Shown here piece after piece: positions 26,663 to 63,164 of a DNA stretch of 64,000 nucleotides; the stretch's first letter is position 1, and the number at the start of each line of letters is the position of its first letter. The notes beneath the pieces were generated by a model that searched no databases, was not told the origin of the DNA, and saw only the letters and a list, made by a program, of their open reading frames with translations. The position numbers and the translations under genes are program-made. The stretch comes from Sulfitobacter sp. (lineage in GTDB: Bacteria; Pseudomonadota; Alphaproteobacteria; Rhodobacterales; Rhodobacteraceae), in contig JBAUHN010000355.1 in NCBI GenBank assembly GCA_049680295.1, positions 8,836 through 72,835 of the forward strand, read 5' to 3'.

Positions 26663-26870
26663 GACGCGCCGAGGTGTCCTTTGGGTGATCGCGTGATCCG
26701 TCAAAGCAAAGGCCGGGGGGGATGTAAAGGTCGCGATCCTGCTGTGGGGAGCACCCCGCATCCGGCCCACCATGGCCACAGAAATATCCAAAAATCGCCA
26801 ACAGCCGGGTGCACACCCTAGGTTGGTGAAACGGCCCCGCGCTTCGGGCCGCCTTAAAGGATGCAGCCCC

Positions 26871-43116: not shown

Positions 43117-43120
43117 AGCC

Positions 43121-44854
43121 TCAGACCGCCTTTCGGTTGACCAGCGATTTTTTCACGTTGCCCGCGTTTTTCAGCATTTTATCCATCACCTCATCGCGCG
43201 GACCCATGGATGCAATGATGCCGTTTTCAACCACCATCAGCGTGTCGCATTCGGCAATCGCAATCGGGCGGTGGGTCATGATGATGACCGAATGGCCCGC
43301 CTTTTTGAAACCGCGCACGGCAAAGTTCAGCGCTTCTGATCCATCCGAATCCAGCGCCGAGTTCGGCTCATCCAGGATCAGCAGCACCGGGTCGCCATAA
43401 AGCGCCCGCGCCAGGGCGATGCGCTGGCGCTGGCCGCCCGACAGCTGGTTTTCATTGCCGTTGAGAACCGTATCATAGCCATCGGGCAATTGGGTGATCA
43501 TGTCATGCGCGTTGGACCGCCGGGCGGCGGCGACCACAGCTTCGGCATCGGGGGTTTGCGACATGCGGGCGATGTTTTCGGCCACCGTGCCGCTGAACAG
43601 GGTCACCGATTGCGGCAGATAGCCAATGTGCTGGCCCAGCCGTTCGGGATCATATTGGTCCAGCGTCGCGCCGCCCAGCCGCACTTCGCCCGCGGCAGGC
43701 TGCCAATAGCCCAAAAGCGTGCGCGCCAGTGTCGATTTACCCGATCCGCTGCGGCCAATGACGCCAAGCGCCTTGCCCGGTTGCAATTCGAACGACAGCG
43801 CGCGCAATGTCGGCACCTTGCCCCCCGGAGGTACAACCGTCAGCCCCAGAACTTTCAGCCGCGCCTCGGGCACCGGCAGTTGCGTCCGCTCGACCATGGG
43901 CGGGACTTTTGCCAAATAATCCGACAGCGCCTGCCAGCCGGCGCGCGCGCGCTGCAGCAGCGGCCACTGGCCCATGGATTGTTCAATCGGCGCCAGCGCG
44001 CGGCCCAAAAGGATGGTGCCCGCGATCATTGAGCCGGGCGTCATTTCGCCCTTGAGCACATAAAACGCGCCCAGGCCCAGCATCGCGGATTGCAAAAACA
44101 TCCGGAATGATTTGGTCAGTGATGTCAGGCTGCCGGTCCAGTCATTGGCACCAATGCTTTTGCGCAACCCGTCATTGCGCCGCAACAGCCAGCGATCGCG
44201 GATGGTCGAGCGCATGCCCTGGGCCAGAATAATCTCGCTGCCCGCACGGGCCTGATCGGCAAAGCTATGGGCGCCTTGCAGGGCGATCTGGCTTTGGCGG
44301 ACCCTGCGGGCAGTCAAAATCTGGTTGAGCAGCGCAAAGACAATCAGCACCGAAGCCCCGGCGACGGCCAGCCAGCCCAGCATCGGGTGAAACAGGAAAA
44401 TCGCCGCCACGAACAGCGGCGTCCAGGGCACATCCATCAGGGCCAGCAACAGCGGCGAGCCCAGAAAAGCCTGCACCGAATCCAGATCGCGCAGCACCGC
44501 CCCCGACACCGCCTGATCCTGCGGGTTGGTTGAACGGCGCAGCGTTGCCTCAAACACCCGCCCGTCCATGGCGGTCTGAAACCGCGCCCCCACCCGCGCC
44601 ATCACCCGGCCACGGGCAAAATCCAGCACCGCCATCAGGACAAACAATCCGGTGACAAGAATTGATAGCGCAATCAATGTCTCGACCGATTGCGACGACA
44701 GCACCCGGTCATAGACCTGCAACATATAAAGCGGCCCTGTCAGCATCAGCAGATTGACAAAGATGCTGAATATGATCGCCCAGAAAATAAGCGCGCGACC
44801 GCTGCGTTGGGCGGCGCGGAGTTCGTCGCGTCCGGGGGCTGGGGTTGAAGTCAT
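43121..44854 (-). CDS. Type I secretion system ABC permease/ATPase (PrtD/AprD type, no C39 domain)
   Basis: LMLTGPLYMLQVYDRVL TMD start; Walker A GRSGSGKST, signature LSGGQRQRIALARAL, Walker B LLILDEPNSALD. Start moved to the Met at 44854. Confidence 0.9.
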   Translation of the reverse strand: MTSTPAPGRDELRAAQRSGRALIFWAIIFSIFVNLLMLTGPLYMLQVYDRVLSSQSVETLIALSILVTGLFVLMAVLDFARGRVMARVGARFQTAMDGRVFEATLRRSTNPQDQAVSGAVLRDLDSVQAFLGSPLLLALMDVPWTPLFVAAIFLFHPMLGWLAVAGASVLIVFALLNQILTARRVRQSQIALQGAHSFADQARAGSEIILAQGMRSTIRDRWLLRRNDGLRKSIGANDWTGSLTSLTKSFRMFLQSAMLGLGAFYVLKGEMTPGSMIAGTILLGRALAPIEQSMGQWPLLQRARAGWQALSDYLAKVPPMVERTQLPVPEARLKVLGLTVVPPGGKVPTLRALSFELQPGKALGVIGRSGSGKSTLARTLLGYWQPAAGEVRLGGATLDQYDPERLGQHIGYLPQSVTLFSGTVAENIARMSQTPDAEAVVAAARRSNAHDMITQLPDGYDTVLNGNENQLSGGQRQRIALARALYGDPVLLILDEPNSALDSDGSEALNFAVRGFKKAGHSVIIMTHRPIAIAECDTLMVVENGIIASMGPRDEVMDKMLKNAGNVKKSLVNRKAV

Positions 44855-45234
44855 AACCTGGGGTCTACCTGTGTTCGGGTCGTCAGTCTGATCGCCATAG
44901 GGCTCATTGGCCGACAAAGATACTATCTGCGCCCTAAAGGGAAACAATTCCACAAGGCATGAGCGGTTGTCCTCCAGCCAGAGGGGGCCATCTGAGCAGA
45001 GGACCGCCACTTCGCAGGGATTCGCCTCTCGGTTTAGGGCAAGAGGTTTGCGCATTCAACTTTCGATGGAAATTACCACAGTATCAAGGCCTGTCACTGC
45101 CTCAAAAGCACCGGAGGCTTTGTTGCACTGGTTTGCAAACACAGTTATAATCGGCGCATAATTTTCTTTTGTTAAAGAACCGCTTTCATCGCTGACAGCA
45201 GCGATACGGGCCTGTGAATTTAAGGGGTAAGATC

Positions 45235-49400: not shown

Positions 49401-52400
49401 GAACGGGGGCGCGAAAACTATGATCAGCTGATCGGTGATCTGATCGCCCAAGATAAGGCACCCACCCGCATTCTGCACGGCTGGCTGGTCACCGGGGACG
49501 AAAGCTTCCGCCCCGGCAGCAGCTTTTTCCATCGCAATCAGGAACAGGGCTTCTACAGCCTGTTGTTCCTGGGCCAGGCCATCGGCGGCGAAGATCTGGC
49601 AATGCCTGTGCATATGACGGTTCTGACATCGGGGGCCATGCAGGTCAGCAACGAGGCGCTGCGCTATCCTGATAAATCCACCGTCATGGGACCTGCACGG
49701 GTGCTGCCGCAGGAATTTCCGGGGCTCACCACAACGGTGCTTGATCTGGATCTGCCGCTGGCTGCCAAAGGCCGGCGCAAGGGTCAGATCGCGCCGCAAA
49801 TGAACCGGCTGATTGATCAGACCCTCGAAGATCTGATTGCCGCACCGGCCAATATCACCGCCGCCCTGCGCGGTGAAAAACGTTATGAACTGTCGGTGCG
49901 CAAACTGGAGATACCAGAGCCTGACAAGGGTGATTTGCCCCTGCGCGACAAAGGTGTCTATATGATCACCGGCGGCTTTGGCGGCATTGGCCTGACCATC
50001 GCCCGCGATCTGATCACCACCCATTCGGCCCGCATTGTGCTGCTGTCACGCAGCGCCATGCCGCCGCGCGATCAATGGGATCAGGTGCTGCACCAGAACG
50101 CGCCGCAAGACCCTGTTGTGCGCCGCATCCGCGCCATTCAGGACCTCGAAAACCTGGGCGGCGAAGTGCTGTGCATCGCCGCCGACGTCAGCAACGTCGA
50201 AGACATGCGCGACGCGGTGACCCAGACCCGCGACGCCTTTGGCGACATCAACGGTGTGATCCATGCCGCAGGGCTGATTGCCGATGCCCCGATCATGGGT
50301 AAATCCACCATGGAGATCGAGGACGTGCTCACGCCCAAGGTCCATGGCACCCATGTGCTGGAAAGCATCTTTCCCGATGGCACGCTGGACTGGCTGGTGC
50401 TGTTCTCGTCAACGTCAACCGTGACCACGCCCGCAGGTCAGGTCGATTATGTCGCCGCCAACGAATATCTGAATGCCTATGCCAAATCGCGCAAGGGCGA
50501 CAAAACCCGGGTGCTGGCGATCAACTGGGGGGTCTGGTCCGAGGTCGGCATGGCCGCGGATGCGATGCTGGCACGGTCCGGCAGCGCCACGCCGCCGCCT
50601 TCTGATCCGGCCCATGTCCCGATGCTGGACGCCGCCACCTTTGGCCCGGCCCATAACCGGGTCTTTACCGCCACATATACCGCCAAGGACCGCTGGTTCC
50701 TGGATGAACACCGCACCAAAGCAGGCGACGCACTGTTGCCCGGCACCGGCTATCTGGAACTGGCCGCCGAAGCGCTGGAGGCGCAGGGCGAAACCAGCCC
50801 GTTTGAAATTCGCGATCTCTATTTCCTGCGCCCGCTGGCTGTGGGCGATGACGTGGCCCAAAACATCCGTCTGCGGCTGCCGCGCAGCGATGTCGGCTAT
50901 GATTTCTCGGTGCAAAGCAGCGATACGGACGCCTTTGAGATCAACGCCCAGGCCAGCCTGTCCCTGCTGCCGATGGAGACCCCCGAGGCGGTGGATATCG
51001 CGGCCCTGCGCGCGCGCTGCACAGTGGCGGCCACTGCGGATGCAGGTGCCGCCATCACCTCGCGGCAAGAAGAACATCTGAACTTTGGCCCGCGCTGGCG
51101 GGTGCTGATGTCGACCGCTTATGGCGACAACGAAGGTCTGGCCGATCTGAAACTGTCAGATGCCTATCAGGGCGATCTGGACGATGGCTATGTGCTGCAC
51201 CCCGGTCTGATGGATCTGGCCACCGGCTGGGCGATGGATCTGATCCGCGACTACCAGCCCACCAACCTGTGGGTACCGGTGTCTTATGGCTCTGTCAAAG
51301 TCTACCGCGATCTGCCGCGCGAGGTGGTCAGCTGGGTCCGCAATGCCGGTGACAACCACGCCGGCGGCCAGATGGCCAGCTTTGATGTCACCATCATGGC
51401 CCCCGATGGCACCGTCTGCGTCGAGATCAAAGGCTTCTCGATCCGGCGCATGGACAGCGTTGCCGATTTCGCCAAAACCGAAAACGCCGCCGTCGCACAG
51501 ATAGACGAGGACGCACCGCGCCCCTTGTCACCTGCCGAAGAACGGCTGCGGCACAATATCTCGCAGGGCATCAAACCGCATGAAGGCTCGGATGCGTTTT
51601 TCCGCGCGCTGGCCTCATCGGCGCCACAGGTCATCGTGTCTTCGCTGGATCTGGATTTGCTGACCGCGCAAGTCGCCGAAAGCTCGGCGGTGCCGGAAAG
51701 CTCCGAGCAGACCTTCCAGCGGCCGGAACTGGATTCCGAATACGCCGCCCCCGCCAATGACATCGAGGAAAAACTGGCCAGCATCTGGCAGGATTTGCTG
51801 GGTGTCGATCAGGTCGGCGTCGAAGACAGCTTTTTCGACCTCGGGGGCCATTCGCTGATCGCGGTGCGGCTGTTTGCGCAGGTGCGCAAGGCCTATAGTG
51901 TCGATTTTCCGATCTCGGTGCTGTTTGAAGCGCCAACCATCCGCAAATGCGCTGAAATGATCGCCGCACGCGGTGTGGCCACATCCTCGGATGCCGGTGA
52001 CAATGCCACCGCAGCGCCCGAAACCGCCACCCGCCGCTTTACCCATCTGGTGCCGATGCACGCAGGCGAGGCCGGACCGCAAACGCCGTTCTTTCTGGTT
52101 GCGGGCATGTTTGGCAACGTGCTGAACCTGCGCCATCTGGCGCATCTTCTGGGCGCGGACCGGCCATTCTACGGGTTGCAGGCGCGCGGGCTTTACGGCG
52201 ATGAGGCGCCCCATACCTCCCTGGTTGAGGCGGCCACCGATTACATCGCTGAAATCCGTGCCGTGCAGCCGCATGGGCCTTATATGGTTGGCGGATTTTC
52301 CGGCGGCGGCATCACCGCCTATGAGATCGCACAACAATTGACAGCCATGGGCGAAGAAGTATCGGTTCTGGTGATGCTCGACACACCGCTGCCGGTGGCA

Positions 52401-52913
52401 GAGCCTGTGACCCTGCGTGACCGGCTTATGATCCAATGGATTGAGCTGCGCAAAAAAGGCCTGAACTATCCGCTGCAATGGGCCAGAAACCGCATTGCAT
52501 GGGAACTCTCCAAGCGCCGCGGTGACGCGGACGGCGATGACATGCCCGCCAATCAGTTCCACAACACCGAAATCGAAGCCGCGTTCATGGAAAGCGTGCG
52601 GTCTTACCAGGTCAAACCCTGGAACGGCCCATTGGCAATGATGCGCCCGCCCTTGGTTGGCACCTGGGAAGTCGCCCCAGGCCGCTGGATCAATGATGAA
52701 CGTGACTATGTGCTGCATGACAATGGCTGGACCGGCTGGGCGCCCAAAATCGAAGTGTTCGAAGTGCCCGGAGACCACGATTCCATGGTGTTAGAGCCGA
52801 ATGTACGGGTGCTTGGCGCCCGGATGAAGCGCTGTATTGAGGCGGCAGGTCGCAGCCCCGGCGTCGCACCCGTCTCCGCAGGCCTGCGCACCATTAAAAA
52901 GGCAGCAGAATAA
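46440..52913 (+). CDS. Type I polyketide synthase, KS-AT-KR-DH-T-TE
   Basis: KS: TACSTSLV, ECHGTGT, KTNIGHLDTAAG. AT: GHSMGE..R..IAAHS. KR: GGFGGIGL, HAAGLIAD, S..YVAANEYL. DH: HRTKAGDALLP and HPGLMD. Carrier: FFDLGGHSL. TE: GGFSGGG, LDTP, GDHDSM. Confidence 0.92.
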   Translation: MDGSDQDIPVNDNDIAIVGMAAHLPGARTIGDYWDNLRGGVESIRKLTPEELRAAGEPEHISGRPDYVPYAAVLEGFETFDAEFFGFSPKEAAIMDPQHRQFLEVAWAALENAGHPPENTPGPVGVFAGCGMGSYFYFNVCSNPDLVDNVGMFLLRHTGNDKDFLATRLSHTLDLKGPSVNMQTACSTSLVTTHYACQALMNGECDMALAGGVTIELPHARGYLYKEGEVLSPDGHCHAFDHRAQGTVFGSGAGVVVLRRLADAIADGDHIWAVIKGTAINNDGAAKAGYLAPSVDGQAAAIAEAHMMAGTPADTIDYIECHGTGTYLGDPIEVAALTQAFAETTDDQGFCRIGSVKTNIGHLDTAAGVASLIKTSLSLHHKQIPPSLGYEAPNPSIDFDGSPFVVNDKLTDWASHKGPRRAGVNSLGVGGTNAHVVLQEAPMRAPSEDSDWPFQILTVSGRTKAALDGNAAALAAHLRANPDQSLADIAWTLKEGRRAFEKRRVIVAADHAEAAQLLEENDPRRVFTHTLVDDAPESVFMFPGGGAQYAGMARDLYETEPVFQEWMDRGLDILQPKLDYDIRAIWLPGAADHASAEERLKTPSVQLPLIMIVEYALAQLWMSWGVKPDVLVGHSMGENTAACVAGVMSFEDCIGLVHLRGQLFDTVAPGGMLSVPLPAAELEPLLGDDLDLGAINAPDLSVATGPQAALDVLEEVLKAREVDCQRIGINIAAHSRMLEPILERFGAYLRSITLNAPQIPIVSNRSGQMMTDAQAMDPDYWVGHLRHTVRFADCITTLATDATPRIFIEVGPGKALSSLTGMHDKVSANQVIGSLRHPDDTTADDAYFMAMLGRVWAVGGEFDWAQIWGEARRNRVPLPGYAFQRAPYFIEPGSNQTQSQAQWLTRTDDVGDWGYRPAWVPRYAACDLDVTHDLKDAETQTWLVFEDNTGLCTGISERLRGAGQRVVTVTPGDAFVKTGDDSYVIAPERGRENYDQLIGDLIAQDKAPTRILHGWLVTGDESFRPGSSFFHRNQEQGFYSLLFLGQAIGGEDLAMPVHMTVLTSGAMQVSNEALRYPDKSTVMGPARVLPQEFPGLTTTVLDLDLPLAAKGRRKGQIAPQMNRLIDQTLEDLIAAPANITAALRGEKRYELSVRKLEIPEPDKGDLPLRDKGVYMITGGFGGIGLTIARDLITTHSARIVLLSRSAMPPRDQWDQVLHQNAPQDPVVRRIRAIQDLENLGGEVLCIAADVSNVEDMRDAVTQTRDAFGDINGVIHAAGLIADAPIMGKSTMEIEDVLTPKVHGTHVLESIFPDGTLDWLVLFSSTSTVTTPAGQVDYVAANEYLNAYAKSRKGDKTRVLAINWGVWSEVGMAADAMLARSGSATPPPSDPAHVPMLDAATFGPAHNRVFTATYTAKDRWFLDEHRTKAGDALLPGTGYLELAAEALEAQGETSPFEIRDLYFLRPLAVGDDVAQNIRLRLPRSDVGYDFSVQSSDTDAFEINAQASLSLLPMETPEAVDIAALRARCTVAATADAGAAITSRQEEHLNFGPRWRVLMSTAYGDNEGLADLKLSDAYQGDLDDGYVLHPGLMDLATGWAMDLIRDYQPTNLWVPVSYGSVKVYRDLPREVVSWVRNAGDNHAGGQMASFDVTIMAPDGTVCVEIKGFSIRRMDSVADFAKTENAAVAQIDEDAPRPLSPAEERLRHNISQGIKPHEGSDAFFRALASSAPQVIVSSLDLDLLTAQVAESSAVPESSEQTFQRPELDSEYAAPANDIEEKLASIWQDLLGVDQVGVEDSFFDLGGHSLIAVRLFAQVRKAYSVDFPISVLFEAPTIRKCAEMIAARGVATSSDAGDNATAAPETATRRFTHLVPMHAGEAGPQTPFFLVAGMFGNVLNLRHLAHLLGADRPFYGLQARGLYGDEAPHTSLVEAATDYIAEIRAVQPHGPYMVGGFSGGGITAYEIAQQLTAMGEEVSVLVMLDTPLPVAEPVTLRDRLMIQWIELRKKGLNYPLQWARNRIAWELSKRRGDADGDDMPANQFHNTEIEAAFMESVRSYQVKPWNGPLAMMRPPLVGTWEVAPGRWINDERDYVLHDNGWTGWAPKIEVFEVPGDHDSMVLEPNVRVLGARMKRCIEAAGRSPGVAPVSAGLRTIKKAAE

Positions 52914-52915
52914 CG

Positions 52916-53929
52916 ATGTCTCACCCCACAGTTCTGACCATCATCCTGAACTATAAAACCGCCCCGATGACCCAGAAATCCATCGCCGCAGCGCGGGCCG
53001 CGATGGCCGGGTTATCCGGTGAAATCACCGTCGTTGATAACGCCTCACAGGACGGATCCTTCGAGACGCTGTCGGCGTATGTGGCAGGCCTTGGCCCCGA
53101 TCCGGACATCCCGGTCCGGGTCCTGGCATCGGGCCGCAATGGCGGCTTTGGGGCGGGCAATAACGTCGGCATCCGCGCCGGGCTGAAGGATGGATCGAAA
53201 CCCGATTACGTCTATGTGCTGAACTCTGACGCCTTCCCGGACAAAGACGCCATTCGTCTGCTGCTGGCGCATCTGCAAACCCACCCCGACGCGGGTTTTG
53301 CCGGCAGTTACATCCATGGCGAAGACGGCGACACCCATCTGACGACATTCCGGTTTCCCTCCGTGTTCAGCGAATTCGAAGGGGCGATCCAGTTTGGCCC
53401 GGTCAGCCGTCTGCTGGCCAAATATGCCGTGCCGGTCAAAACCCCGGACACGGTCACACCCGTCGACTGGCTGGCAGGCGCCAGCATCATGATGCGCCAA
53501 AGCGTGCTGGATGAAATTGGCATCTTTGACGAAGAATTCTTTCTCTATTTTGAGGAAACGGACCTGTGCCGCCGCGCCCATCTGGCCGGGCATCAGACCG
53601 TGTTTGTGCCGCAAAGCCGTGTGGCCCATATCGGGTCGGTGTCCACGGGCATGAAAACATGGGGGCGGGTGCCGGGCTACTGGTTTGCCTCGCGGCGCTA
53701 TTATTTCACCAAGAACCACGGCCGGCTTTATGCGGGTCTGGCCACGCTGGCGCATCTGGCGGGGGGCGGGCTGCACTGGCTGCGCTGTCTGGTGACGCGC
53801 CGCGCCAACAACACGCCGTCGCATTTCCTGCGCACCTTGGCCTGGCATGATCTGACCGCCCGGCGCCGCGAGAATCCAAAACCGCAACCTGCGCTGACAT
53901 CCACGCCCCATCCAACGACCGGAGAATAA
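52916..53929 (+). CDS. Glycosyltransferase family 2 (embedded between the PKS and NRPS genes)
   Basis: LTIILNYKTAPMT..VVDNASQDGS..LNSDA..FLYFEETDLCRR. Starts 2 nt after the PKS stop and ends 4 nt before the NRPS start. Confidence 0.85.
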   Translation: MSHPTVLTIILNYKTAPMTQKSIAAARAAMAGLSGEITVVDNASQDGSFETLSAYVAGLGPDPDIPVRVLASGRNGGFGAGNNVGIRAGLKDGSKPDYVYVLNSDAFPDKDAIRLLLAHLQTHPDAGFAGSYIHGEDGDTHLTTFRFPSVFSEFEGAIQFGPVSRLLAKYAVPVKTPDTVTPVDWLAGASIMMRQSVLDEIGIFDEEFFLYFEETDLCRRAHLAGHQTVFVPQSRVAHIGSVSTGMKTWGRVPGYWFASRRYYFTKNHGRLYAGLATLAHLAGGGLHWLRCLVTRRANNTPSHFLRTLAWHDLTARRRENPKPQPALTSTPHPTTGE

Positions 53930-53933
53930 CCCC

Positions 53934-56900
53934 ATGTCCGATTTCAATTCCATCGTCATCGGCAACGAATCCCTTGTGATTCAATGCGGTGACATGCTGT
54001 TGCAGGGCGGGCATAAGATCAGCGCCCTTGTCACCCGCAACCCGGACGTGCGCGCCTGGGGCGAAAAACAGGGTCTAAGCGTGCATAGGCCGGGGTCTGA
54101 TCTGGCGGATCGGCTGGGGGATACCCCCTGTGACTGGCTGTTTTCCATCGCCAACCTCGATATTATTCCGCAGGCCCTGCTGGACCGCGCCGCCAAAGGG
54201 GCGATCAACTTTCACGATGGGCCCCTGCCGCGTTATGCCGGTCTGAACGCACCGGCCTGGGCGCTGATCAACGGCGAGGCGCAGCACGGCATCACCTGGC
54301 ACCTGATCGAAGGCGGCATCGACGAAGGCGATATCATCGAGCAACGCAGCTTTGACATCGCCCCCCATGACACTGCCCTGACGATGAACACCAAATGCTA
54401 TGTCGCGGCGATCGAAAGTTTCGGCGCGGTGATATCGGCCGTGGCAGATGGTCTGCCCGGCCGCCGCGCTCAGGACCTGTCCCAGCGCAGCTATTTCGCC
54501 AAAGACGCCCGGCCCGCCGCTGCCGCACGGCTGGATTTCAATACATCCGCCAAAGATCTGGTGGCCTTGGTGCGGGGCCTTGATCATGGCGACTACTGGA
54601 ACCCGCTGTCTTGCCCCAAGATCGAAGCGAATGGCCAAATCTGGCTGATCGGCGCCGCCTCTGTCGCCGAAGACAGCCCCGATGCGGCCCCCGGTACGGT
54701 CCTTGCCAGCGACGGCGACACACTGACTGTTGCCACCGGTGCAGGCGCCATTGCGCTGACAAATATCAGACCCTGCACAGGCGATGCGGACCTGCCACAG
54801 GCAGGCGATGTCCTCTCCTCGCCCTCGGCAGCCGAGGCAACGGCCCTTGATGCCGTCCTGGCCAAAACCCTGCGCGCAGAACCCTATTGGCGCAAACGTC
54901 TTGAAACCCTGACCCCGGCGCAGGCCCCTTTGATGCAGGCCACGGATGCCAAGGGCGTCGAGACGCGCAAATTAAATCTGCCCGCGGCACTAGGCGCGGA
55001 TGATCAGGCCGCAGTGCTGGCCACATTGGTCCTGCGCCTTGGCGATGACAGCACCATTGATCTGGCCTGGCAGGACGCAGGAACCACCCATAACGCGCCA
55101 AAACCCTATGTCAGAGACTGGGTGCCGCTGCGGTTTGAGACAAAAGACAGCTTTGACGCCGCCAGCACCGCACTCGCCGATGAGATCGCAACCGCGCGCA
55201 GCAAGGGCGGTTTTGCCTGCGATCTGCCCGCGCGTATTCCGGGTCTGGATGCTGCGCAAATGCCGCAGGTCGGGGTGACATCCGGCCGTGAAATCATTTC
55301 CGGCACGGTTCTGACCCTTGCCACCGGTGACGCCCCCGCCCTGATCGCGGATGCCGCACAGATGCCCGCCGCCCTGCTGGATCTGATCGCAGCGCGTCTT
55401 GAAACCCTTGGCACAGCCCTTGCCATGCCTGACGCGCGCGGCCAGGCGCTTAGTGCCCTGCCGATCCTGCCGGATGCAGAACGCCAGCACATCCTGCAGG
55501 GCCTGAACGACACAAAAACCGCCTACCCGGCAGATGCCTGCATTCATCAGCTGTTTGAAGCCCAGGTCGCCCGCACGCCGGACGCCGAAGCACTGGTGTT
55601 TGAAGGCGAGGTGCTAAGCTATGCCGCGCTGGATGCGCGCGCCAATCAGGTGGCCCATGTGTTGCGCGATATGGGCGTCGGCCCCGGCAAAACCGTCGGG
55701 CTGCATTTGCGCCGCTCGACCGAATTGCTGGTGGGCGCCCTGGCGATCTTTAAGGCCGGGGGCGCTTATGTGCCGCTGGACCCAGGCTTCCCCTCTGATC
55801 GCATTGCCTACTACATCGAAGACAGCGCCGCACCGGTGATCATCACCCAGAGCGATCTGGCAGCGGGCCTGCCCGCGCATAGTGCCAAAGTGCTTGTGTT
55901 AGAGAGTGATCCGCGCATTGCCGCCGCCGCCACAGACACGCCCGACAGCGGTGTTTCCGCCTCTGATCTGGCCTATCTGATCTACACTTCCGGCTCGACC
56001 GGCAAGCCCAAGGGCGTCATGGTTGAACACCGCAATGTATCGAATTTCTTTACCGGCATGGACGCCCATATCAGCCATGACCCTGCGGGCGTCTGGCTGG
56101 CCGTGACCAGCCTGTCGTTTGATATCTCGGTGCTGGAACTGTTCTGGACCCTTGCGCGGGGTTTCAAACTGGTGCTTAGCAGCGATGAAGACCGCGGTCT
56201 GATCTCAAACGGGGGGCTGCAGGTATCCGACACGCCGATGGATTTCAGTCTCTATTACTGGGGGAATGACGATGCTGTCGGCACCGAGAAATACAAATTG
56301 CTGCTGGAAGGCGCGAAATTCGCCGATGACCACGGCTTTTGCGCTGTCTGGACGCCTGAACGGCATTTCCACGCCTTTGGCGGGCCTTATCCCAACCCGT
56401 CCGTGACCGGTGCGGCGGTGGCTGCCGTGACCAAAAATCTGTCGGTGCGCGCCGGTAGTATCGTCGCCCCCCTGCACCATCCTGCGCGCATTGCCGAAGA
56501 ATGGGCGGTGATTGACAATCTGACGGGGGGCCGTGTCGGGCTGGCCATGGCCTCGGGCTGGCAGCCCGATGATTTTGTGCTGCGCCCCGAAAACACGCCG
56601 CCACACAATAAAACCGCCCTGATAGAGACGATCAAGACCGTGCGCCGGCTTTGGGCGGGCGAAGCGGTTGAATTCCCCCGCCAGGATGGCGCGATGCACG
56701 CGGTTGTCACCCAGCCGCGCCCGATTTCGGACAAAATGCCGATGTGGGTCACCTCTGCCGGCAACCCCGCCACCTGGGTTGAGGCGGGCGAATTGGGCGC
56801 CAATGTTCTGACCCACCTTCTGGGCCAAAGCGTGGATGAGGTCGCCGAAAAGATCAAAATCTACCACAAGGCGCTGCGCAGCGCCGGGCATGATCCGGCC

Positions 56901-58562
56901 GACCACACCGTCACGCTGATGCTGCACACCTATATCGCCGACAGCCGCGATGCCGCGCGCGACGTCGCCCGCGAGCCGATGAAAAGCTATCTGCGCAGTG
57001 CCGCCGGGCTGATCAAACAATACGCCTGGGCCTTTCCCGCCTTTAAGCGCCCTGAGGGGGCCAAAAACGCCTTTGATCTTGATCTGGGCAGTCTGGAACC
57101 GGACGAGCTGGAAGGCATCCTCGATTTCGCCTTTGAGCGGTATTTCAACGATTCCGGCATGTTTGGGACTGTTTCGGACTGTGTGGAACGGGTCGAAGCG
57201 CTGAAAAAAATCGGCGTTGGCGAAGTCGCCTGCCTGATCGAATATGGCATCGCCACCGACACCGTTCTTGAGGGTCTGCGCCCGCTGGCCGAGGTGTTGC
57301 GCCAGTCCAATCAGGCCACTGAACTGGACGCGGATGATTTCTCCATCGCCGCCCAGATCATCCGCCACAAGGTCACGCATATGCAGTGCACCCCCTCAAT
57401 GGCGCAGATGATCACCATGAACGACGAGGCGCGCAGCGCTTTGGCGCGGGTGCCGCATGTGCTGGTTGGCGGCGAGGCACTGTCGGGTGCGCTGGCCCAG
57501 GAATTGCACCAGATCACCGGCAAGCCGGTCCAGAATATGTATGGTCCCACGGAAACCACGATCTGGTCCACAACCGAACGGACAACAGGCGGCGAGGGTG
57601 TGATCAACATCGGCAAACCCATCGCCAATACCCAGGTCTATGTGCTGGACGAGGACCGCCAGCCCGTGCCCATCGGCACCGCAGCCGAGCTTTATATCGG
57701 CGGCGATGGGGTGACGCGCGGCTATTGGCAGCGCCCTGATTTGACAGACGAAAGATTCGTCGCTGATCCCTTTATAGAGCCTGATATGGCCGCCCCCGGC
57801 GGCGCGCGCATGTACCGCACCGGCGATCTGGTGCGCTGGCGCAGCGATGGGCGGCTTGATTTTCTGGGCCGCATTGACCATCAGGTCAAACTGCGCGGCT
57901 ACCGGATTGAACTGGGCGAAATTGAAGCGGCAATTGACGGCTTTGCAGGCGTGCGCCAATCGGTGGTGATGCCCCGCGAAGACACCCCCGGCCTGACCCA
58001 GCTGGTGGCCTATGTGACCACCACCGCCCCGGTGGCCGAGGCAGCGTTGCGCAAACATATCGGCGCCGGACTGCCTGACTATATGGTACCCGCACGTGTT
58101 GTAACGCTGGACAGCTTTCCGCTGACCCCCAACAAAAAGATCGACCGCAAGGCGCTGCCGGCCCCCATGGCCGTGCAGGCTGCACCCCCCGCGACAGCCA
58201 GCGCCCCGGCCCCGGACGGATCATCGGCCCAGAGGATCGCCGACATCTGGTCACAGATATTGGGCGTCGCCAACATCGGTGCGCGCGATAACTTCTTTGA
58301 TCTGGGCGGGCATTCACTGCTGGCGGTACAGGCCCACCGTGAAATACGCACCACCCTGTCGGTGCCAAAGCTCAGCATCACGGACATTTTCCGCTTTCCA
58401 ACCCTGCAGGCCCTTGCCGCCCAGGTGGATGCGAAATCCGGCGTGTCTGAACCTGCGTCCAAACCCGATGACGCCCCCGCCGTGGCCGAACGGGCCGCAG
58501 CCCGCAGCGATGCCATGTCGCGCCGCAAGGAAATGAGGGCGAAACGTCACGCCCGCTCATGA
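53934..58562 (+). CDS. NRPS starter module: formyltransferase-like domain, C-domain C-lobe remnant, A domain (Gly code) interrupted by a luciferase-like monooxygenase, and T domain
   Basis: F: INFHDGPLPRYAG + GGIDEGDII. A: LSYAALDARAN (A1), LKAGGAYVPLD-type (A2), YLIYTSGSTGKPKG (A3), FDISVLE (A4), then a 360-aa LLM insert, then NMYGPTETT (A5), GELYIGG..GYW (A6), YRTGD (A7), GRIDHQVKLRGYRIELGEIE (A8), LPDYMVP (A9), NKKIDRK (A10). T: FFDLGGHSL. Confidence 0.92.
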   Translation: MSDFNSIVIGNESLVIQCGDMLLQGGHKISALVTRNPDVRAWGEKQGLSVHRPGSDLADRLGDTPCDWLFSIANLDIIPQALLDRAAKGAINFHDGPLPRYAGLNAPAWALINGEAQHGITWHLIEGGIDEGDIIEQRSFDIAPHDTALTMNTKCYVAAIESFGAVISAVADGLPGRRAQDLSQRSYFAKDARPAAAARLDFNTSAKDLVALVRGLDHGDYWNPLSCPKIEANGQIWLIGAASVAEDSPDAAPGTVLASDGDTLTVATGAGAIALTNIRPCTGDADLPQAGDVLSSPSAAEATALDAVLAKTLRAEPYWRKRLETLTPAQAPLMQATDAKGVETRKLNLPAALGADDQAAVLATLVLRLGDDSTIDLAWQDAGTTHNAPKPYVRDWVPLRFETKDSFDAASTALADEIATARSKGGFACDLPARIPGLDAAQMPQVGVTSGREIISGTVLTLATGDAPALIADAAQMPAALLDLIAARLETLGTALAMPDARGQALSALPILPDAERQHILQGLNDTKTAYPADACIHQLFEAQVARTPDAEALVFEGEVLSYAALDARANQVAHVLRDMGVGPGKTVGLHLRRSTELLVGALAIFKAGGAYVPLDPGFPSDRIAYYIEDSAAPVIITQSDLAAGLPAHSAKVLVLESDPRIAAAATDTPDSGVSASDLAYLIYTSGSTGKPKGVMVEHRNVSNFFTGMDAHISHDPAGVWLAVTSLSFDISVLELFWTLARGFKLVLSSDEDRGLISNGGLQVSDTPMDFSLYYWGNDDAVGTEKYKLLLEGAKFADDHGFCAVWTPERHFHAFGGPYPNPSVTGAAVAAVTKNLSVRAGSIVAPLHHPARIAEEWAVIDNLTGGRVGLAMASGWQPDDFVLRPENTPPHNKTALIETIKTVRRLWAGEAVEFPRQDGAMHAVVTQPRPISDKMPMWVTSAGNPATWVEAGELGANVLTHLLGQSVDEVAEKIKIYHKALRSAGHDPADHTVTLMLHTYIADSRDAARDVAREPMKSYLRSAAGLIKQYAWAFPAFKRPEGAKNAFDLDLGSLEPDELEGILDFAFERYFNDSGMFGTVSDCVERVEALKKIGVGEVACLIEYGIATDTVLEGLRPLAEVLRQSNQATELDADDFSIAAQIIRHKVTHMQCTPSMAQMITMNDEARSALARVPHVLVGGEALSGALAQELHQITGKPVQNMYGPTETTIWSTTERTTGGEGVINIGKPIANTQVYVLDEDRQPVPIGTAAELYIGGDGVTRGYWQRPDLTDERFVADPFIEPDMAAPGGARMYRTGDLVRWRSDGRLDFLGRIDHQVKLRGYRIELGEIEAAIDGFAGVRQSVVMPREDTPGLTQLVAYVTTTAPVAEAALRKHIGAGLPDYMVPARVVTLDSFPLTPNKKIDRKALPAPMAVQAAPPATASAPAPDGSSAQRIADIWSQILGVANIGARDNFFDLGGHSLLAVQAHREIRTTLSVPKLSITDIFRFPTLQALAAQVDAKSGVSEPASKPDDAPAVAERAAARSDAMSRRKEMRAKRHARS

Positions 58563-59254
58563 CCCCGGTTCCCGGGTTGGAAGCGGCCCTGCGCAGCCAG
58601 CTGGGCGGTCAGATCTCGGTGGCTTTGGCAGACCCCAAAGCCCCAACCGGCAGATTGTTCCCCGCTGAAGCGGCCGCCATGGCAGCGGCGACGCCAAAAC
58701 GCCTGTCGGAGTTTACCGCCGGACGCGGCGCGGCGCGGCGCGCGCTGGCCGCCATCGGCGTGGACCCTCAGCCCATCCTGCACGCCCCCGACCGTGCACC
58801 GATCTGGCCCGCGGGTGTGACCGGCAGCATCACCCATTGCGACATTTTATGTCTCTCTGCCGTGGCCAGGACCGACACCATCCGCAGCCTTGGCATTGAT
58901 CTGGAACCCGACGCAGACCTGCCCCGCGATCTGGAAGACATCGTCTGTACATCGGCCGAGCGGGGCTGGCTGGACAGCCACCCCGCAGACAGACGCGGGA
59001 CACTGGCCAAGCTGATCTTTTGCGCCAAGGAAAGTGCCTATAAGGCGCAATATCCCCTGACACAGAGCCTGTTTGGCTTTGAGACCTTTGAAATTACCCT
59101 TGATCCGGAGGCGGGGCAATTCACTGCAACCTTCCAAAACCCGGTCGGCGGGTTTGCAGCCGGTGACGTGCTACAGGGGCGGTTTCTGCGGCAACAGGGT
59201 CTGATTTTCACCAGCGTGGTGATCCCACACTCTGACAGCCCGGTGTTCGGCTGA
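58559..59254 (+). CDS. Sfp/EntD-type 4'-phosphopantetheinyl transferase
   Basis: WPAGVTGSITHC, SLGIDLEP and FCAKESAYKA motifs. ATGA overlap with the NRPS stop. Confidence 0.88.
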   Translation: MTPVPGLEAALRSQLGGQISVALADPKAPTGRLFPAEAAAMAAATPKRLSEFTAGRGAARRALAAIGVDPQPILHAPDRAPIWPAGVTGSITHCDILCLSAVARTDTIRSLGIDLEPDADLPRDLEDIVCTSAERGWLDSHPADRRGTLAKLIFCAKESAYKAQYPLTQSLFGFETFEITLDPEAGQFTATFQNPVGGFAAGDVLQGRFLRQQGLIFTSVVIPHSDSPVFG

Positions 59255-59366
59255 CGCAAACGACACAAACCTGCGGCTCAATCTGTTCCAGACGGCCATT
59301 TTAACTGTTTGTTAAGACCTTGAGACCCTGGTGTTGCGCACGAGGTTTCACAGGGTAAATGCAAAC

Positions 59367-60878
59367 ATGCGCGACATAAAAGCAGCGGTTTTTATCATGG
59401 CCTGTCTGTTCCATATTGCCCCTGTGGAACAGGCCCGCGCCCAGGAAGGCGCGCTGGATCTGGAACTCAGCACCACATACGAGCGGTGGACGTTACCCGG
59501 TAACGAAAAGATGGGCATGGCCAATGTCAGGCTGTCGGAATTTTCCGGGGAGTATTTCAATTATGGCATTGAATCCTACACCGCAGTGGCGGGGGAGCGT
59601 GGCGGCTTCATCACAATCGGTGCGCATGCTGGATTGCGCTTTCCCGTCAGCCAGAGACTGTCACTGGACAGTGGGCTTTCTGTGGGGGCCGGGGGCGGGC
59701 GTGGAGGGTATTTCCTAAGTGGCGGCGGCCTGATGCTGCGTGGGCACGCAGGTCTGAAATACGCGGCTCCCATCGGGCAGTTGGGTCTGGGTGTCAGCTA
59801 TGTAAGCTTTCCTGAAAATGGGGATATAGACAGTGCGCAAGCCTATATTTCCTATTCTCTGCCCTTCTCGGTGGCGGGCAGACCTGGCCTGAATTTCGGC
59901 ACCGCTGCGCAGGCTGGCAATGCAATTCCGCGCAGAAAAGATTCCAAAACACATCAGTTTTCACTGGTGACGCGGTCGGTGATGGCCAACAGACAGGTTC
60001 TGAAAGACGCCAGCGCAACGGTCTTTCAGGAAGATTTCAAAATGCTGGGGGTCAGGTGGCGGACGCATTTGACTGACACATGGATCGCCCAGTTTGAAAC
60101 AGTCGGAGGCGGCGGAGGCAACAGCGCGGGGTACATGCATCTTCTGGCCGGGTTGGGTGCGCGGCAATCCATCACCAGAAACCTGTCGGTCTATGAAACC
60201 CTGTCCATCGGGGGCGGTGGCGGCGGCGGCGTGCCCACGGGGGGCGGGTTTTTGGTAGATGCCGCCATCGGCGTTCAGTATCTGTTTCCCAATTCTGCCT
60301 TTATCGATGTGTCCGCGTCCAAATTTCTTGCGCCTTCAACAGCGTTTTCAAACACCACTTTAAATCTGAACTTTGGCTACCAGTTGGGCACAGCCAGACC
60401 CGCGGATACGGGCAGTGTGGACAGGCGCCTTGCCTATCCGGTCAGAATTCGGACCGTCCAGCAGAACTATAAAGGCACACATCCAAACTGGCGAAACCGG
60501 CCCGCGCAGCCCGTCGATAACCTTGGGTTTCAGATTGACTATTTTATGTCTCCCAACATGTTTCTCACCGGGCAGGCCATTGGCGCATGGGGCGGAGACG
60601 CCGGGGCCTATATGACGGGTCTGGTCGGCGCAGGTGTGCATAAAGATTTGATCGGCAACCTTTTTGTCGAAGCAGAGGGTCTTGTTGGTGTTGCAGGCGG
60701 CGGCGGTCTGACCGTCGGTAGCGGCGCCGTGGGACAAGTGAATTTGGGTCTTGGATATCAATTTACACCCCGTTTAAGTGCGATGGTCAGCACCGGAAAA
60801 ATCAAATCTTTTGACGGGGACTTTGAAGCAGATGTTCTGGGTGTCTCGCTCAACTACGATTTCACCCTGTTCTTTTAA
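59367..60878 (+). CDS. Predicted outer-membrane beta-barrel protein with three internal repeats and poly-Gly tracts
   Basis: Signal peptide ..APVEQARA/QEG, alternating-hydrophobic strands, terminal ..LNYDFTLFF (C-terminal Phe beta-signal), and Gly runs GAGGGRGG, GGGGG, GGGGGGG, AGGGG. Confidence 0.65.
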   Translation: MRDIKAAVFIMACLFHIAPVEQARAQEGALDLELSTTYERWTLPGNEKMGMANVRLSEFSGEYFNYGIESYTAVAGERGGFITIGAHAGLRFPVSQRLSLDSGLSVGAGGGRGGYFLSGGGLMLRGHAGLKYAAPIGQLGLGVSYVSFPENGDIDSAQAYISYSLPFSVAGRPGLNFGTAAQAGNAIPRRKDSKTHQFSLVTRSVMANRQVLKDASATVFQEDFKMLGVRWRTHLTDTWIAQFETVGGGGGNSAGYMHLLAGLGARQSITRNLSVYETLSIGGGGGGGVPTGGGFLVDAAIGVQYLFPNSAFIDVSASKFLAPSTAFSNTTLNLNFGYQLGTARPADTGSVDRRLAYPVRIRTVQQNYKGTHPNWRNRPAQPVDNLGFQIDYFMSPNMFLTGQAIGAWGGDAGAYMTGLVGAGVHKDLIGNLFVEAEGLVGVAGGGGLTVGSGAVGQVNLGLGYQFTPRLSAMVSTGKIKSFDGDFEADVLGVSLNYDFTLFF

Positions 60879-60935: not shown

Positions 60936-62117
60936 TCAGCCTTGCCTGAGTGTTGCGGCCAGATGATCCATGCGGCGCCCGAACTCTGTTTGGAAATCGC
61001 GCGCCTGCGCAAAGGCCACCGATGCCGTGCAGGCCGCGACGATCTGGTCGCGATCCGCATTCAGCGTGGCGATGGTGTCGGCCAAAGCCCCCACATCCCC
61101 CAGTGGCACCGCCCAGCCCGCCTGTGCCTGCGCCTGCACCGCAGACCACATCTGATTGGCATAGCCGACAATGGCCAGCCCGCAGCCCATGCTTTCCAGA
61201 TAGGTGCACGACGGGTCCGACTGGCGATGACAACTCAGAAAGATATCCGCGCAGGTCCGGCTAACCGGCACCAAGACGTCCTCGAAATCCACCGGATCAT
61301 GCAGAGTCACGTGATCGCCCAGATTTTTGCTGTTGATCTGATCTGCGATCTCGTCGCGCAGGCTGCCCGCGCCGTAGATATCCAGCTGAAAGTTGATGCC
61401 CTTCCCCTGCAGGCGCTGTGCAACCGGGATCAGGTCCTGCGCGCCTTTCATCGGTTCCAGCCGGCCTGAATGGATCAGCCGCAGCGGGGAACCTGATTGC
61501 AAATGCGCCGCGCGGCGCTGCATTTCATCATCCGTGACAAACAAATCCGGCTTCATCCGGTTGTCGAGATACATCATCGTATTGGCGTTTAGCCCTTTGT
61601 AGGCTCTGTATGCGGGGTAGCCATTGACCTGAACGCCCTGGGCGTGCCGAAAGGCGCGGCGGCGGCGGATTTCATGCCATGTGTTCCAGCCCATCGAATA
61701 GATCCGGCGCGCAAGGCTTTTGTCTTTGCTCAGCCATGCGATCTGCAATCGGGCCTGCAAGGTATATTCAATCGTATAGACAACCTTTGCCCCGACCTGC
61801 GCGCCAAGGGCTGCGATGTGCAGACCTTCATGGTCATCGGCGGCACAAAACACCACATCATAGCCTTGCAGCATGTCGCGGGTCACGGGCTGCCCCGGAT
61901 CCAGCACTGTCAGGCCAAATTCCAGATCCGCAGGGTTTTGCGTGGTCTGAAACGGGATATGGGTCGCCCCGCCGTGCAGAATGCAATCCACCTTGCCCTC
62001 CCACAGGGCGCAATGCTGGCGCATGCCCTCGACAAACTTGGCGTCCAGAATCAGGGCGTCCCCCGCAGGCATGACCGGAGCGGTGGCAATCATCAACAGG
62101 TGGGGCATTTTATTCAT
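60936..62117 (-). CDS. Glycosyltransferase family 4 (GT-B)
   Basis: RLIHSGRLEPMKG..DIYGAGSLRDEI..LSCHRQSDPSCTYLESMGCGLAIVGY GT1/GT4 C-terminal domain. Confidence 0.8.
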   Translation of the reverse strand: MNKMPHLLMIATAPVMPAGDALILDAKFVEGMRQHCALWEGKVDCILHGGATHIPFQTTQNPADLEFGLTVLDPGQPVTRDMLQGYDVVFCAADDHEGLHIAALGAQVGAKVVYTIEYTLQARLQIAWLSKDKSLARRIYSMGWNTWHEIRRRRAFRHAQGVQVNGYPAYRAYKGLNANTMMYLDNRMKPDLFVTDDEMQRRAAHLQSGSPLRLIHSGRLEPMKGAQDLIPVAQRLQGKGINFQLDIYGAGSLRDEIADQINSKNLGDHVTLHDPVDFEDVLVPVSRTCADIFLSCHRQSDPSCTYLESMGCGLAIVGYANQMWSAVQAQAQAGWAVPLGDVGALADTIATLNADRDQIVAACTASVAFAQARDFQTEFGRRMDHLAATLRQG

Positions 62118-62231: not shown

Positions 62232-63164
62232 TTGCTGAGACGTCTCAAACGCCATAGCCCCGCTTTTCTTTTATTGCTGCTTGCCGCCTGTGGCAGCCTG
62301 ACCCGCTGTAGCGGGCCCAAACCACTGGATCAGGCCGCGTTTGACGCGCTTTATGCGACCCCGCAGGCCGTTGGCGCTGGTCCGCAAAAAACCTACCACA
62401 TTGGCCATAGTCTGGTCGGGCGTGACATGCCGGCAATGCTGGCGCAATTGGCCGGAGACGGGCATGGCTATGACAGCCAGCTTGGCTGGGGCAGTCCGCT
62501 GAAAGCGCATTGGGACCCGGATGAGGAAATCAACGGCTTTGACGTTGAAAACAACCACCCGCGTTACCGCGACGCAATGGAGGCGGTGACATCGGGGGAG
62601 TACGACGCGCTGGTGCTGACCGAAATGGTCGAAATCCGCGACGCGATCAAATATTTCAACTCAGGCGATTACCTGCACCGCTGGGCGCAGGCCGGATGGG
62701 GGGCAAACCCCGAAATGCGGGTCTATTTATACGAAACCTGGCATCCGCTGGACGATCCCGAGGGCTGGCTGGAGCGCATAGACAGCGATCTGGCCCGCTA
62801 TTGGGAGGGCGACATCCTGCGCCGCGCGCTGGCCTATGATGACATGCCGCATCCGGTCTATGTGATCCCGGCCGGACAGGTGCTGGCCGCTTTTGTCCGC
62901 GCGATTGAGGCGACCCCCGTCGATGGCCTGTCTGCGCGGGCCGATCTTTTCAGCGATGACATCCACATCAACGATCTGGGGGCCTATCTGGTGGCGCTGA
63001 CGCATTATGCGGTGCTTTATCAGAAATCCCCCGTTGGGTTGCCTCATGCGCTCAACCGTGCCGACGGAACCCCGGCCACAGCCCCCGGTGAAGGCACCGC
63101 ACGATTGATGCAGGAAACGGTCTGGCGCGTGGTGCAGGCCTATCCGCCCGCAGGGCTGCCCTAG
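62232..63164 (+). CDS. Lipoprotein, SGNH-like hydrolase candidate (paralog 2)
   Basis: TTG start, lipobox LLLAAC, YHIGHSLVG, YDALVLTE, DDIHINDLGAYLVALTHYAVLY. Paralog of 45235-46203. Confidence 0.7.
   Translation: MLRRLKRHSPAFLLLLLAACGSLTRCSGPKPLDQAAFDALYATPQAVGAGPQKTYHIGHSLVGRDMPAMLAQLAGDGHGYDSQLGWGSPLKAHWDPDEEINGFDVENNHPRYRDAMEAVTSGEYDALVLTEMVEIRDAIKYFNSGDYLHRWAQAGWGANPEMRVYLYETWHPLDDPEGWLERIDSDLARYWEGDILRRALAYDDMPHPVYVIPAGQVLAAFVRAIEATPVDGLSARADLFSDDIHINDLGAYLVALTHYAVLYQKSPVGLPHALNRADGTPATAPGEGTARLMQETVWRVVQAYPPAGLP

Follow-up and report, generated by a model that had tools for sequence, protein, structure and literature searches.

Does a gene that directly follows a polyketide synthase/non-ribosomal peptide synthetase (PKS/NRPS) cluster in Sulfitobacter sp. 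encode the outer-membrane exporter of that cluster's product? The gene in question (59367..60878, +) lies in a 64,000-nucleotide stretch of contig JBAUHN010000355.1 (assembly GCA_049680295.1, positions 8,836 to 72,835), here called the window. An earlier note, made from the sequence alone, had described its product as an outer-membrane barrel built from three tandem repeats of about 115 amino acids (aa) with poly-glycine turns, encoded directly after the phosphopantetheinyl transferase (PPTase) gene of a thiotemplate operon. Our analysis leads to a modified picture, to which we assign a probability of roughly 60%: the outer-membrane protein (OMP) would consist of three tandem eight-stranded barrels, belong to a family that acts as an accessory of polysaccharide export elsewhere, and be encoded by a gene inserted beside the PKS/NRPS cluster here.

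A threefold repeat with glycine-rich hairpins

The gene and the predicted elements of its product are the following, with residues counted from the ATG at 59367 and the basis of each assignment in brackets.

59367..60878, +: OMP gene, 503 aa, stop included (open reading frame track, 666 homologues, one copy in the genome)
59367..59441, +: Sec-type signal peptide, residues 1-25, predicted cut after A-R-A (sequence and AlphaFold helix)
59448..59885, +: predicted barrel 1, residues 28-173, eight strands (model, alignment, column statistics)
59685..59729, +: glycine-rich strand 5-strand 6 hairpin of barrel 1, residues 107-121 (sequence, alignment, model)
59886..59948, +: predicted linker 1, residues 174-194, low model confidence (AlphaFold model)
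59949..60386, +: predicted barrel 2, residues 195-340, eight strands (model; PF13505 match in homologues)
60210..60248, +: glycine-rich strand 5-strand 6 hairpin of barrel 2, residues 282-294 (sequence, model)
60387..60431, +: predicted linker 2, residues 341-355, low model confidence (AlphaFold model)
60432..60875, +: predicted barrel 3, residues 356-503, eight strands (model of the unit alone, PDB matches)
60687..60725, +: glycine-rich strand 5-strand 6 hairpin of barrel 3, residues 441-453 (sequence, model)

The open reading frame (ORF) track begins at a GTG (59331), and the ATG at 59367 is the likelier start, giving the protein of 503 aa. The chain opens with MRDIK, a hydrophobic stretch and ARA, with QE after the predicted cut, a cleavage site that would follow from the AxA rule; AlphaFold places a helix at residues 2-14, with predicted local distance difference test (pLDDT) values below 50 at residues 15-26. 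Both the signal peptide and the terminal Phe that had been reported are confirmed from the sequence, the final residues being ...TLFF.

The triple internal repeat proved genuine, with hhalign probabilities of 96-99.7% between the three units. For this comparison, segments of the units (R1, R2 and R3) were cut from an alignment of 43 homologues (A1) and aligned as profiles, which gave 98.2, 96.5 and 99.7% for the three pairs (E = 3e-14, 9e-10 and 2e-25, respectively). The matches are in register across 106-114 columns, and the values were unchanged when the segments were lengthened to whole domains. With the single sequence, Smith-Waterman alignment against 500 shuffles gave z = 7.3 for R1-R2, 9.7 for R2-R3 and just 2.2 for R1-R3.

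The repeat unit had been drawn too short, since the earlier segments left out one or two strands at the start of each unit. These strands align too (LDLELSTTYERWT, HQFSLVTRSVMAN, YPVRIRTVQQNYK), and in an alignment of 924 units the first strand of every unit aligns, so that the unit length is corrected from about 115 to about 150 aa, to which a linker is added; the period is about 160-165 aa. All the quoted motifs are present in the translation, including the glycine runs GAGGGRGG, IGGGGGGG and VAGGGG and the aromatic strand ends YISYSL, LNFGYQL and LNYDF, although the opening motif is looser than had been written. The model also bears out the poly-glycine turns: in each unit the run extends from the last part of strand 5 through the loop into the beginning of strand 6, and by standard topology this hairpin would form an extracellular turn.

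Among the most conserved columns of the 43-homologue alignment are GERGGFIT and GAGGGRGGY.LSGGGLMLR, both invariant and both in barrel 1, together with GGGGGGGVDTGGG and GAAGGGGLAVGSG. Barrel 1 ends in YISYSLPF, barrel 2 in LNLNFGYQL and barrel 3 in the C-terminal, beta-signal-like SLNYDFTLFF. At the DNA level, the barrel 2 hairpin (60210-60248) shows a 72% echo with 60696-60724 in the hairpin of barrel 3.

Three eight-stranded barrels or one wide pore

Modelling of the whole protein with AlphaFold2 (alignment A1) gave a beta-barrel model of 24 strands in three sets of eight (residues 28-173, 195-340 and 356-502), with a mean pLDDT of 86.3, a predicted template-modelling score (pTM) of 0.81 and low-confidence linkers at residues 182-191 and 344-351. 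Unit 3 modelled alone, from an alignment (A2) of 126 unit-2 and unit-3 segments taken from the window and 62 loci, reached a pLDDT of 96.4 and a pTM of 0.87 with eight strands. Its best PDB matches are closed eight-stranded barrels: OmpA (template-modelling (TM) score 0.63), NspA (0.64/0.63), the designed barrel 6x9z (0.62/0.77, rmsd 3.3 A), the OprF N-domain (0.60/0.67), OmpX, Ail and OmpW. In addition, PF13505 (OMP_b-brl), an eight-strand family, is weakly matched by 10 of the 43 homologues (E<=1), and in the homologues inspected the match reaches the last or next-to-last position of the profile inside unit 2.

The chain has the general marks of an outer-membrane protein: a signal peptide, alternating strands and a C-terminal aromatic beta-signal (...NYDFTLFF). 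In the column statistics, hydrophobic outward-facing positions alternate along the strands with inward-facing ones, which are the more conserved and the richer in glycine and include conserved E, R, Q, N and D; small residues occupy the outer face of the third strand in units 2 and 3, and an aromatic, beta-signal-like strand closes each unit. Moreover, the chain divides into non-overlapping segments that are each homologous to a complete outer-membrane barrel, as is expected of a multibarrel, judging by the mutual homology of the units, PF13505 and the TM scores. On the models, the protein is most likely three separate eight-stranded barrels on one chain (an 8-8-8 multibarrel) and not a 24-strand pore. 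The earlier assignment as an outer-membrane beta-barrel protein thus holds, from the signal, the strands and the terminal Phe, whereas the idea of one barrel made from three repeats gives way to three barrels, which the evidence favours.

A single 24-stranded barrel, in which each repeat would contribute eight strands to the wall of a wide pore, has some points to commend it. The high pTM of the whole model would suit one rigid body, and the 8-8-8 reading is taken from model scores. Covariation gave no closing signal within the units: mean-field direct-coupling analysis (DCA), run on 308 full-length sequences (effective number about 233) and, with strand-swapped controls, on a pool of 924 units, recovered hairpin contacts, and it gave no signal for the 24-strand alternative either. 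We nevertheless regard a single barrel as very improbable. Unit 3 closes by itself as an eight-strand barrel (pLDDT 96, TM 0.6-0.77 to eight-strand proteins), while the whole model, compared with the PDB by Foldseek, scores no better than TM 0.29 against barrels of 18 to 22 strands, and the 50 matches listed contain neither a 24-strand usher nor an LptD entry. Both junctions are low-confidence linkers of 15-20 residues predicted on the periplasmic side (linker 1 because an even number of strands precedes it), every unit has its own beta-signal-like terminal strand, and the PF13505 profile is completed within unit 2. Finally, the model has no plug domain, 24 strands and short turns using up all the residues, and an empty 24-strand pore would presumably leave the membrane open.

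Two known architectures were rejected. A classical trimeric porin or OprD/Occ channel (16-18 strands) finds no Pfam or NCBIfam match and no Foldseek TM above 0.29, and a 24-strand single barrel of the PapC or FimD kind is absent among the 50 matches listed and would lack its plug.

An unnamed family across phyla

The window protein has no Pfam or NCBIfam match (E<=1) and no sequence relative in the PDB, in line with the suspicion that it belongs to no characterised OMP family, and membership in a well-known porin family was found neither by Pfam-A nor by NCBIfam. Profile searches of PDB sequences returned noise alone (2dlk, E = 1.8; OprF, E = 0.06). The YjbH profile PF06082 matches neither the window protein nor any other protein of its genome. 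As for PF13505, three inspected homologues pass its 28.7-bit gathering cut-off, whereas the window protein fails it (0 families at E<=1).

What the family search did reveal is a large unnamed family of about 900 clusters at 50% identity. In a set of 5.8 billion proteins, 666 homologues were found at E<=1e-3, all of about 500 aa and all annotated as "hypothetical", and an exhaustive profile search of cluster representatives returned 897 clusters at E<=1e-3 (424 at E<=1e-30). Matches in genomes come from Chlorobiaceae, many freshwater Burkholderiales and Methylophilaceae, Gallionellaceae, Zetaproteobacteria and Legionellaceae, and further from Desulfuromonadaceae, Ignavibacteriales, Gemmatimonadales, Holophagaceae and Marinimicrobia, and the inward-facing motifs are invariant across phyla.

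Free single-barrel relatives were not seen in a search with the unit profile, which returned 13 short proteins, all on contigs of 6 kb or less. The four inspected have no signal peptide and start inside unit 2 or unit 3, and we take all 13 as gene fragments rather than free-standing barrels. Some members are longer: P0162, P0193 and P0194 carry N-terminal extensions of 180-240 aa. P0162 resembles LptD_N/LptA weakly (E = 0.002, short of the cut-off), which would hint at lipid handling, and P0193 and P0194 match nothing.

Gene neighbourhoods and fusions suggest a probable role in polysaccharide export

If the protein is probably not a wide pore, what does it do? To read its context, all ORFs within 7 kb of the gene were clustered over 63 loci, 39 of which are well flanked (at least 5 kb on both sides). 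The sole recurrent neighbours encode OPX proteins (Poly_export plus SLBB; 13 loci), Wzz/GNVR proteins (13), WecA-like GT4 glycosyltransferases (10) and Polysacc_synt_2 proteins (8). One or more of these four occur at 20 of the 63 loci and at 16 of the 39 well-flanked ones. An OPX gene is present at 11 of the 39, against an expectation of about 1.4% for a random gene, a rough estimate made from the four OPX genes of the window's 4.6-Mb genome and spans of 16 kb. The neighbourhood is not one inherited arrangement, because gene order differs between lineages: it varies among Chlorobiaceae, Polynucleobacter, Comamonadaceae, Methylophilaceae and Mariprofundaceae, with the locus of P0006 as another example.

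Four members of the family are natural fusions. P0124 (889 aa) has a complete 8-8-8 module followed by a match to the C-terminal portion of the Pfam profile YjbH (positions 406-648 of 658), and three more proteins (P0269-P0271; 893-900 aa) have the same build and a signal peptide, their YjbH parts being 45-56% identical. At the P0124 and P0270 loci, an OPX gene (942-970 aa) and a Wzz gene come directly downstream of the fusion gene, and Wzy_C, GT4 and Polysacc_synt_2 genes are close at hand. The neighbouring OPX proteins contain three to six SLBB stretches, with a weak GfcC-like match in five of eight, and none shows Wza_C at E<=0.1. Judged by Pfam alone, they are similar to proteins of class 2A or class 3 in Saidi et al. 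(PMC9603273). Read from this family context, the role of an accessory in polysaccharide export is likely.

The same context could also arise around a general structural or adhesive poly-8 OMP of the OmpA/OmpX kind without any pathway-specific role, its polysaccharide neighbours reflecting the clustering of envelope genes. Such a protein would agree with the fold, which resembles OmpA, OmpX and NspA, with the lack of polysaccharide genes at most loci and with the diversity of the other neighbours (a haem-binding protein, an M50 protease, the isoleucyl-tRNA synthetase IleRS, DctM and FeoB). We consider this unlikely in view of the OPX adjacency at 11 of 39 loci set against its random estimate, the conserved fusion to the YjbH C-terminal barrel within OPX-Wzz operons and the invariance of the inward-facing motifs from phylum to phylum, while the loops of the model are too short for an adhesin.

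The clustering also returned an antisense (-) ORF inside 59331-60878 that recurs at 27 of the 63 loci; most likely it is no gene but an artefact, produced by GGC-rich glycine codons when the other strand is read.

The gene after the PPTase gene: a probable insertion into a conserved cluster

Upstream of the OMP gene, the cluster encodes a PKS (KS-AT-KR-DH-ACP-TE), a GT2 protein, a formyltransferase-A(monooxygenase)-PCP protein and the PPTase. About 3 kb separate the PPTase gene from the gene at 62232-63164, and this interval consists of the OMP gene (+) and a convergent GT4 gene (-).

58559..59254, +: PPTase gene, last of the conserved PKS-GT2-NRPS-PPTase unit; upstream flank, outside the feature
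60936..62117, -: GT4-type (Glycos_transf_1) glycosyltransferase gene, convergent to the OMP gene (Pfam, NCBIfam)
62232..63164, +: downstream flank of the pair concluded to be inserted; its orthologue lies directly 3' of the PPTase gene in 4 of 8 relatives

The OMP gene does lie directly after the PPTase gene in the window, but the link to the thiotemplate pathway that this position seemed to imply is not conserved. In four of the eight relatives fetched (L114, L115, L117 and L118), the PPTase gene is followed, less than 200 bp on, by the orthologue of 62232-63164 (55-62% identity). Neither the 8-8-8 gene nor a GT4 orthologue is present in the loci of any of the eight, L117 having a lone weak 25% GT1 match about 4.4 kb from the PPTase gene. 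Across 200 genera sampled from the same taxonomic family, the NRPS occurs in 66 and a distant 8-8-8 homologue in 6, and no genome except that of the window has both. The metagenomic homologues that are 81% and 75% identical to the window protein also have other surroundings, the neighbours being an MFS transporter gene in one case and an IS21 helper gene in the other.

The GC content of the OMP gene is 0.556 and the genome mean 0.561, with values of 0.61-0.66 for the PKS/NRPS genes; it is thus the thiotemplate cluster (window 50000-59000), and not the OMP gene, that is compositionally unusual relative to the genome mean.

From these comparisons we conclude that the OMP and GT4 genes form an insertion of about 3 kb into a conserved orphan PKS/NRPS cluster, the route of which we infer, and because the pair was inserted into a conserved cluster, the position of the OMP gene after the PPTase gene is probably incidental. 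No convincing flanking repeats turned up when the boundaries of the insertion were sought, and a DNA search of 20 relatives did not find the inserted segment, in a sample that held no other genome of the same genus. As for the GT4 gene, a 41% identical GT1 orthologue lies 4 kb from a distant 8-8-8 homologue at locus L081, which is not clearly a polysaccharide locus.

Just past the end of the window, on the same contig (C355; L084 3418-5634), lie a gene for an HTH_13 protein and one for a phage-type integrase, downstream of the cluster and about 2.5 kb from the contig end, which is a possible border of a mobile element.

Several features of the locus would fit a protein that here serves the adjacent PKS-GT2-NRPS-PPTase pathway by exporting a glycolipid or lipopeptide product or anchoring it in the outer membrane. 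The OMP gene shares the strand of the PPTase gene and lies 113 bp further downstream, and the gap holds no terminator-like site; a GT2 gene lies within the operon and the GT4 gene adjoins it; the window also holds an ABC-HlyD-TolC set, and in another genome (G116) a homologue follows an ABC-HlyD pair. Even so, such a service seems improbable to us. Not one of the 66 NRPS-holding relatives has an 8-8-8 gene and not one of the 6 holders of an 8-8-8 gene has the NRPS; in four of eight relatives the PPTase gene directly abuts the orthologue of 62232-63164; the 81% and 75% homologues have different neighbours; the GC content departs from that of the PKS/NRPS genes; and eight-strand barrels would give no wide channel. 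For the window, the gene should not be annotated as an exporter of the PKS/NRPS product.

The G116 locus deserves mention in its own right: there (L119 5259-10154, contig C11), a distant 8-8-8 homologue comes directly after an ABC exporter (681 aa) and an HlyD-type adaptor (446 aa), in the place expected of a TolC-like outer-membrane factor.

A proposed pore-less platform for polysaccharide export

Mechanistically, the three barrels would have arisen by triplication, two short periplasmic linkers joining them. After export by the Sec pathway, the machinery for beta-barrel assembly (BAM) would insert the barrels one by one, a stepwise course that we propose because each barrel has its own beta-signal-like terminal strand. 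Each barrel would then be almost wholly embedded in the membrane, with a glycine-rich polar inward face and the strand 5-6 hairpin, and since eight strands make a barrel too narrow to let through either a polymer or a large metabolite, a pore function is improbable. The three barrels would instead pack as a compact pore-less platform; compact packing is consistent with the high pTM of the model and with the small outer-face residues on the third strand of units 2 and 3. In polysaccharide loci this platform would partner KpsD/GfcE-like OPX proteins and Wzz-type co-polymerases, in a role modelled on GfcD/YjbH, whose extra barrel accompanies a gated barrel, and it may serve as an outer-membrane dock for the periplasmic OPX assembly or deal with the lipid end of the polymer.

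A bolder extension, which we put forward only tentatively, is that the 8-8-8 module could be an unrecognised, widespread outer-membrane component of Wzx/Wzy-type export, a compact three-barrel platform that couples KpsD/GfcE-like OPX proteins without a membrane-spanning helix to the outer membrane and is interchangeable with the N-terminal barrel of GfcD/YjbH, an interchangeability that the natural fusions suggest.

Several observations weigh against the overall proposal. About 60% of the well-flanked loci have no polysaccharide gene near by, and among these are all eight homologue loci in six other genomes of the same taxonomic family, at which OPX and Wzz genes are absent. In the window genome itself, the four OPX genes are on other contigs and a YjbH homologue is absent. 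On the structural side, the DCA signal for barrel closure between strand 1 and strand 8 (0.305) was not above background (null 0.215 +/- 0.125), and the side-by-side packing without strand pairing between units is something that we infer from the models and have not seen directly. Our search found no experiment on any member of the family.

Relation to known multibarrel and export systems

The 8-8-8 architecture itself is of an already predicted kind and is not new. Solan, Pereira, Lupas, Kolodny and Ben-Tal (PNAS 2021; PMC8346858) predicted multibarrel chains in 186 MB-families, mostly poly-8 and including 8-8-8 (MB-family 007), and described poly-8 superfamilies from Bacteroidetes. Like those proteins, the window family would have several eight-stranded barrels per chain obtained by amplification, and in both cases the support is computational (homology and contact or structure prediction). 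Unlike them, it occurs in Chlorobi, Proteobacteria and several other phyla and always has three units, and neither glycine-rich hairpins nor a link to OPX and Wzz is described in the main text of that study. Our literature search found no paper on the family, its glycine hairpins, its OPX association or its fusion to the YjbH barrel.

The closest functional parallel is GfcD/YjbH (PF06082), two-barrel OMPs that belong to operons for group 4 capsule and related exopolysaccharides (PMC8346858, PMC9603273, PMC11494523). In their C-terminal barrel a lateral gate has been modelled through which lipid-anchored chains would exit (PMC11494523). Both are multi-barrel OMPs encoded with an OPX gene, and the four fused members carry the GfcD/YjbH C-terminal barrel after the 8-8-8 module, which replaces the N-terminal 12-strand barrel of GfcD. 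The window protein differs in having predicted barrels of 8 strands instead of 12 and 13, no PF06082 match and no laterally gated barrel.

Each unit, taken alone, is similar in fold and size to the OmpA N-domain, OmpX/Ail, NspA, the OprF N-domain and OmpW (TM 0.5-0.77), but in contrast to these single eight-strand OMPs the window protein has three units, very short loops, glycine-run hairpins and no Pfam match. A further comparison is offered by Wzp, PgaA, BcsC, AlgE and Wzi, barrels of 16 to 18 strands that work alongside polysaccharide pathways (PMC9603273). As in those systems, the barrel is encoded beside OPX genes without a recognisable Wza_C helix; those proteins, however, are single wide barrels that pass or bind glycans, whereas the window protein would have three narrow ones and shows no sequence or fold similarity to them.

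It is an open question by what route a polysaccharide passes the outer membrane where its OPX protein lacks a membrane-spanning helix (PMC9603273), and the existence and roles of single-chain multibarrels have so far been supported mainly by prediction (PMC8346858). Being large, spread across phyla and confidently modelled, with a GfcD-type fusion and OPX/Wzz neighbours, the family provides a testable candidate for both questions. Should the bolder extension above be true, the family would be the first among multibarrels outside Enterobacteria to which a pathway can be assigned.

Envelope-glycan genes elsewhere in the window

Between 20091 and 45055 of the window, 15-40 kb upstream of the OMP gene, lies a set of envelope-glycan genes:

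20091-21635: Wzy_C/O-antigen-ligase-like gene
26772-28775: AT3-SGNH acyltransferase gene
32152-34974: GT2-sulfotransferase-GT2 genes
36528-37913, -: TolC-like OEP gene
41809-45055, -: HlyD gene and fused ABC exporter gene

Together, these genes may encode a pathway for a sulfated, acylated surface glycan or glycolipid.

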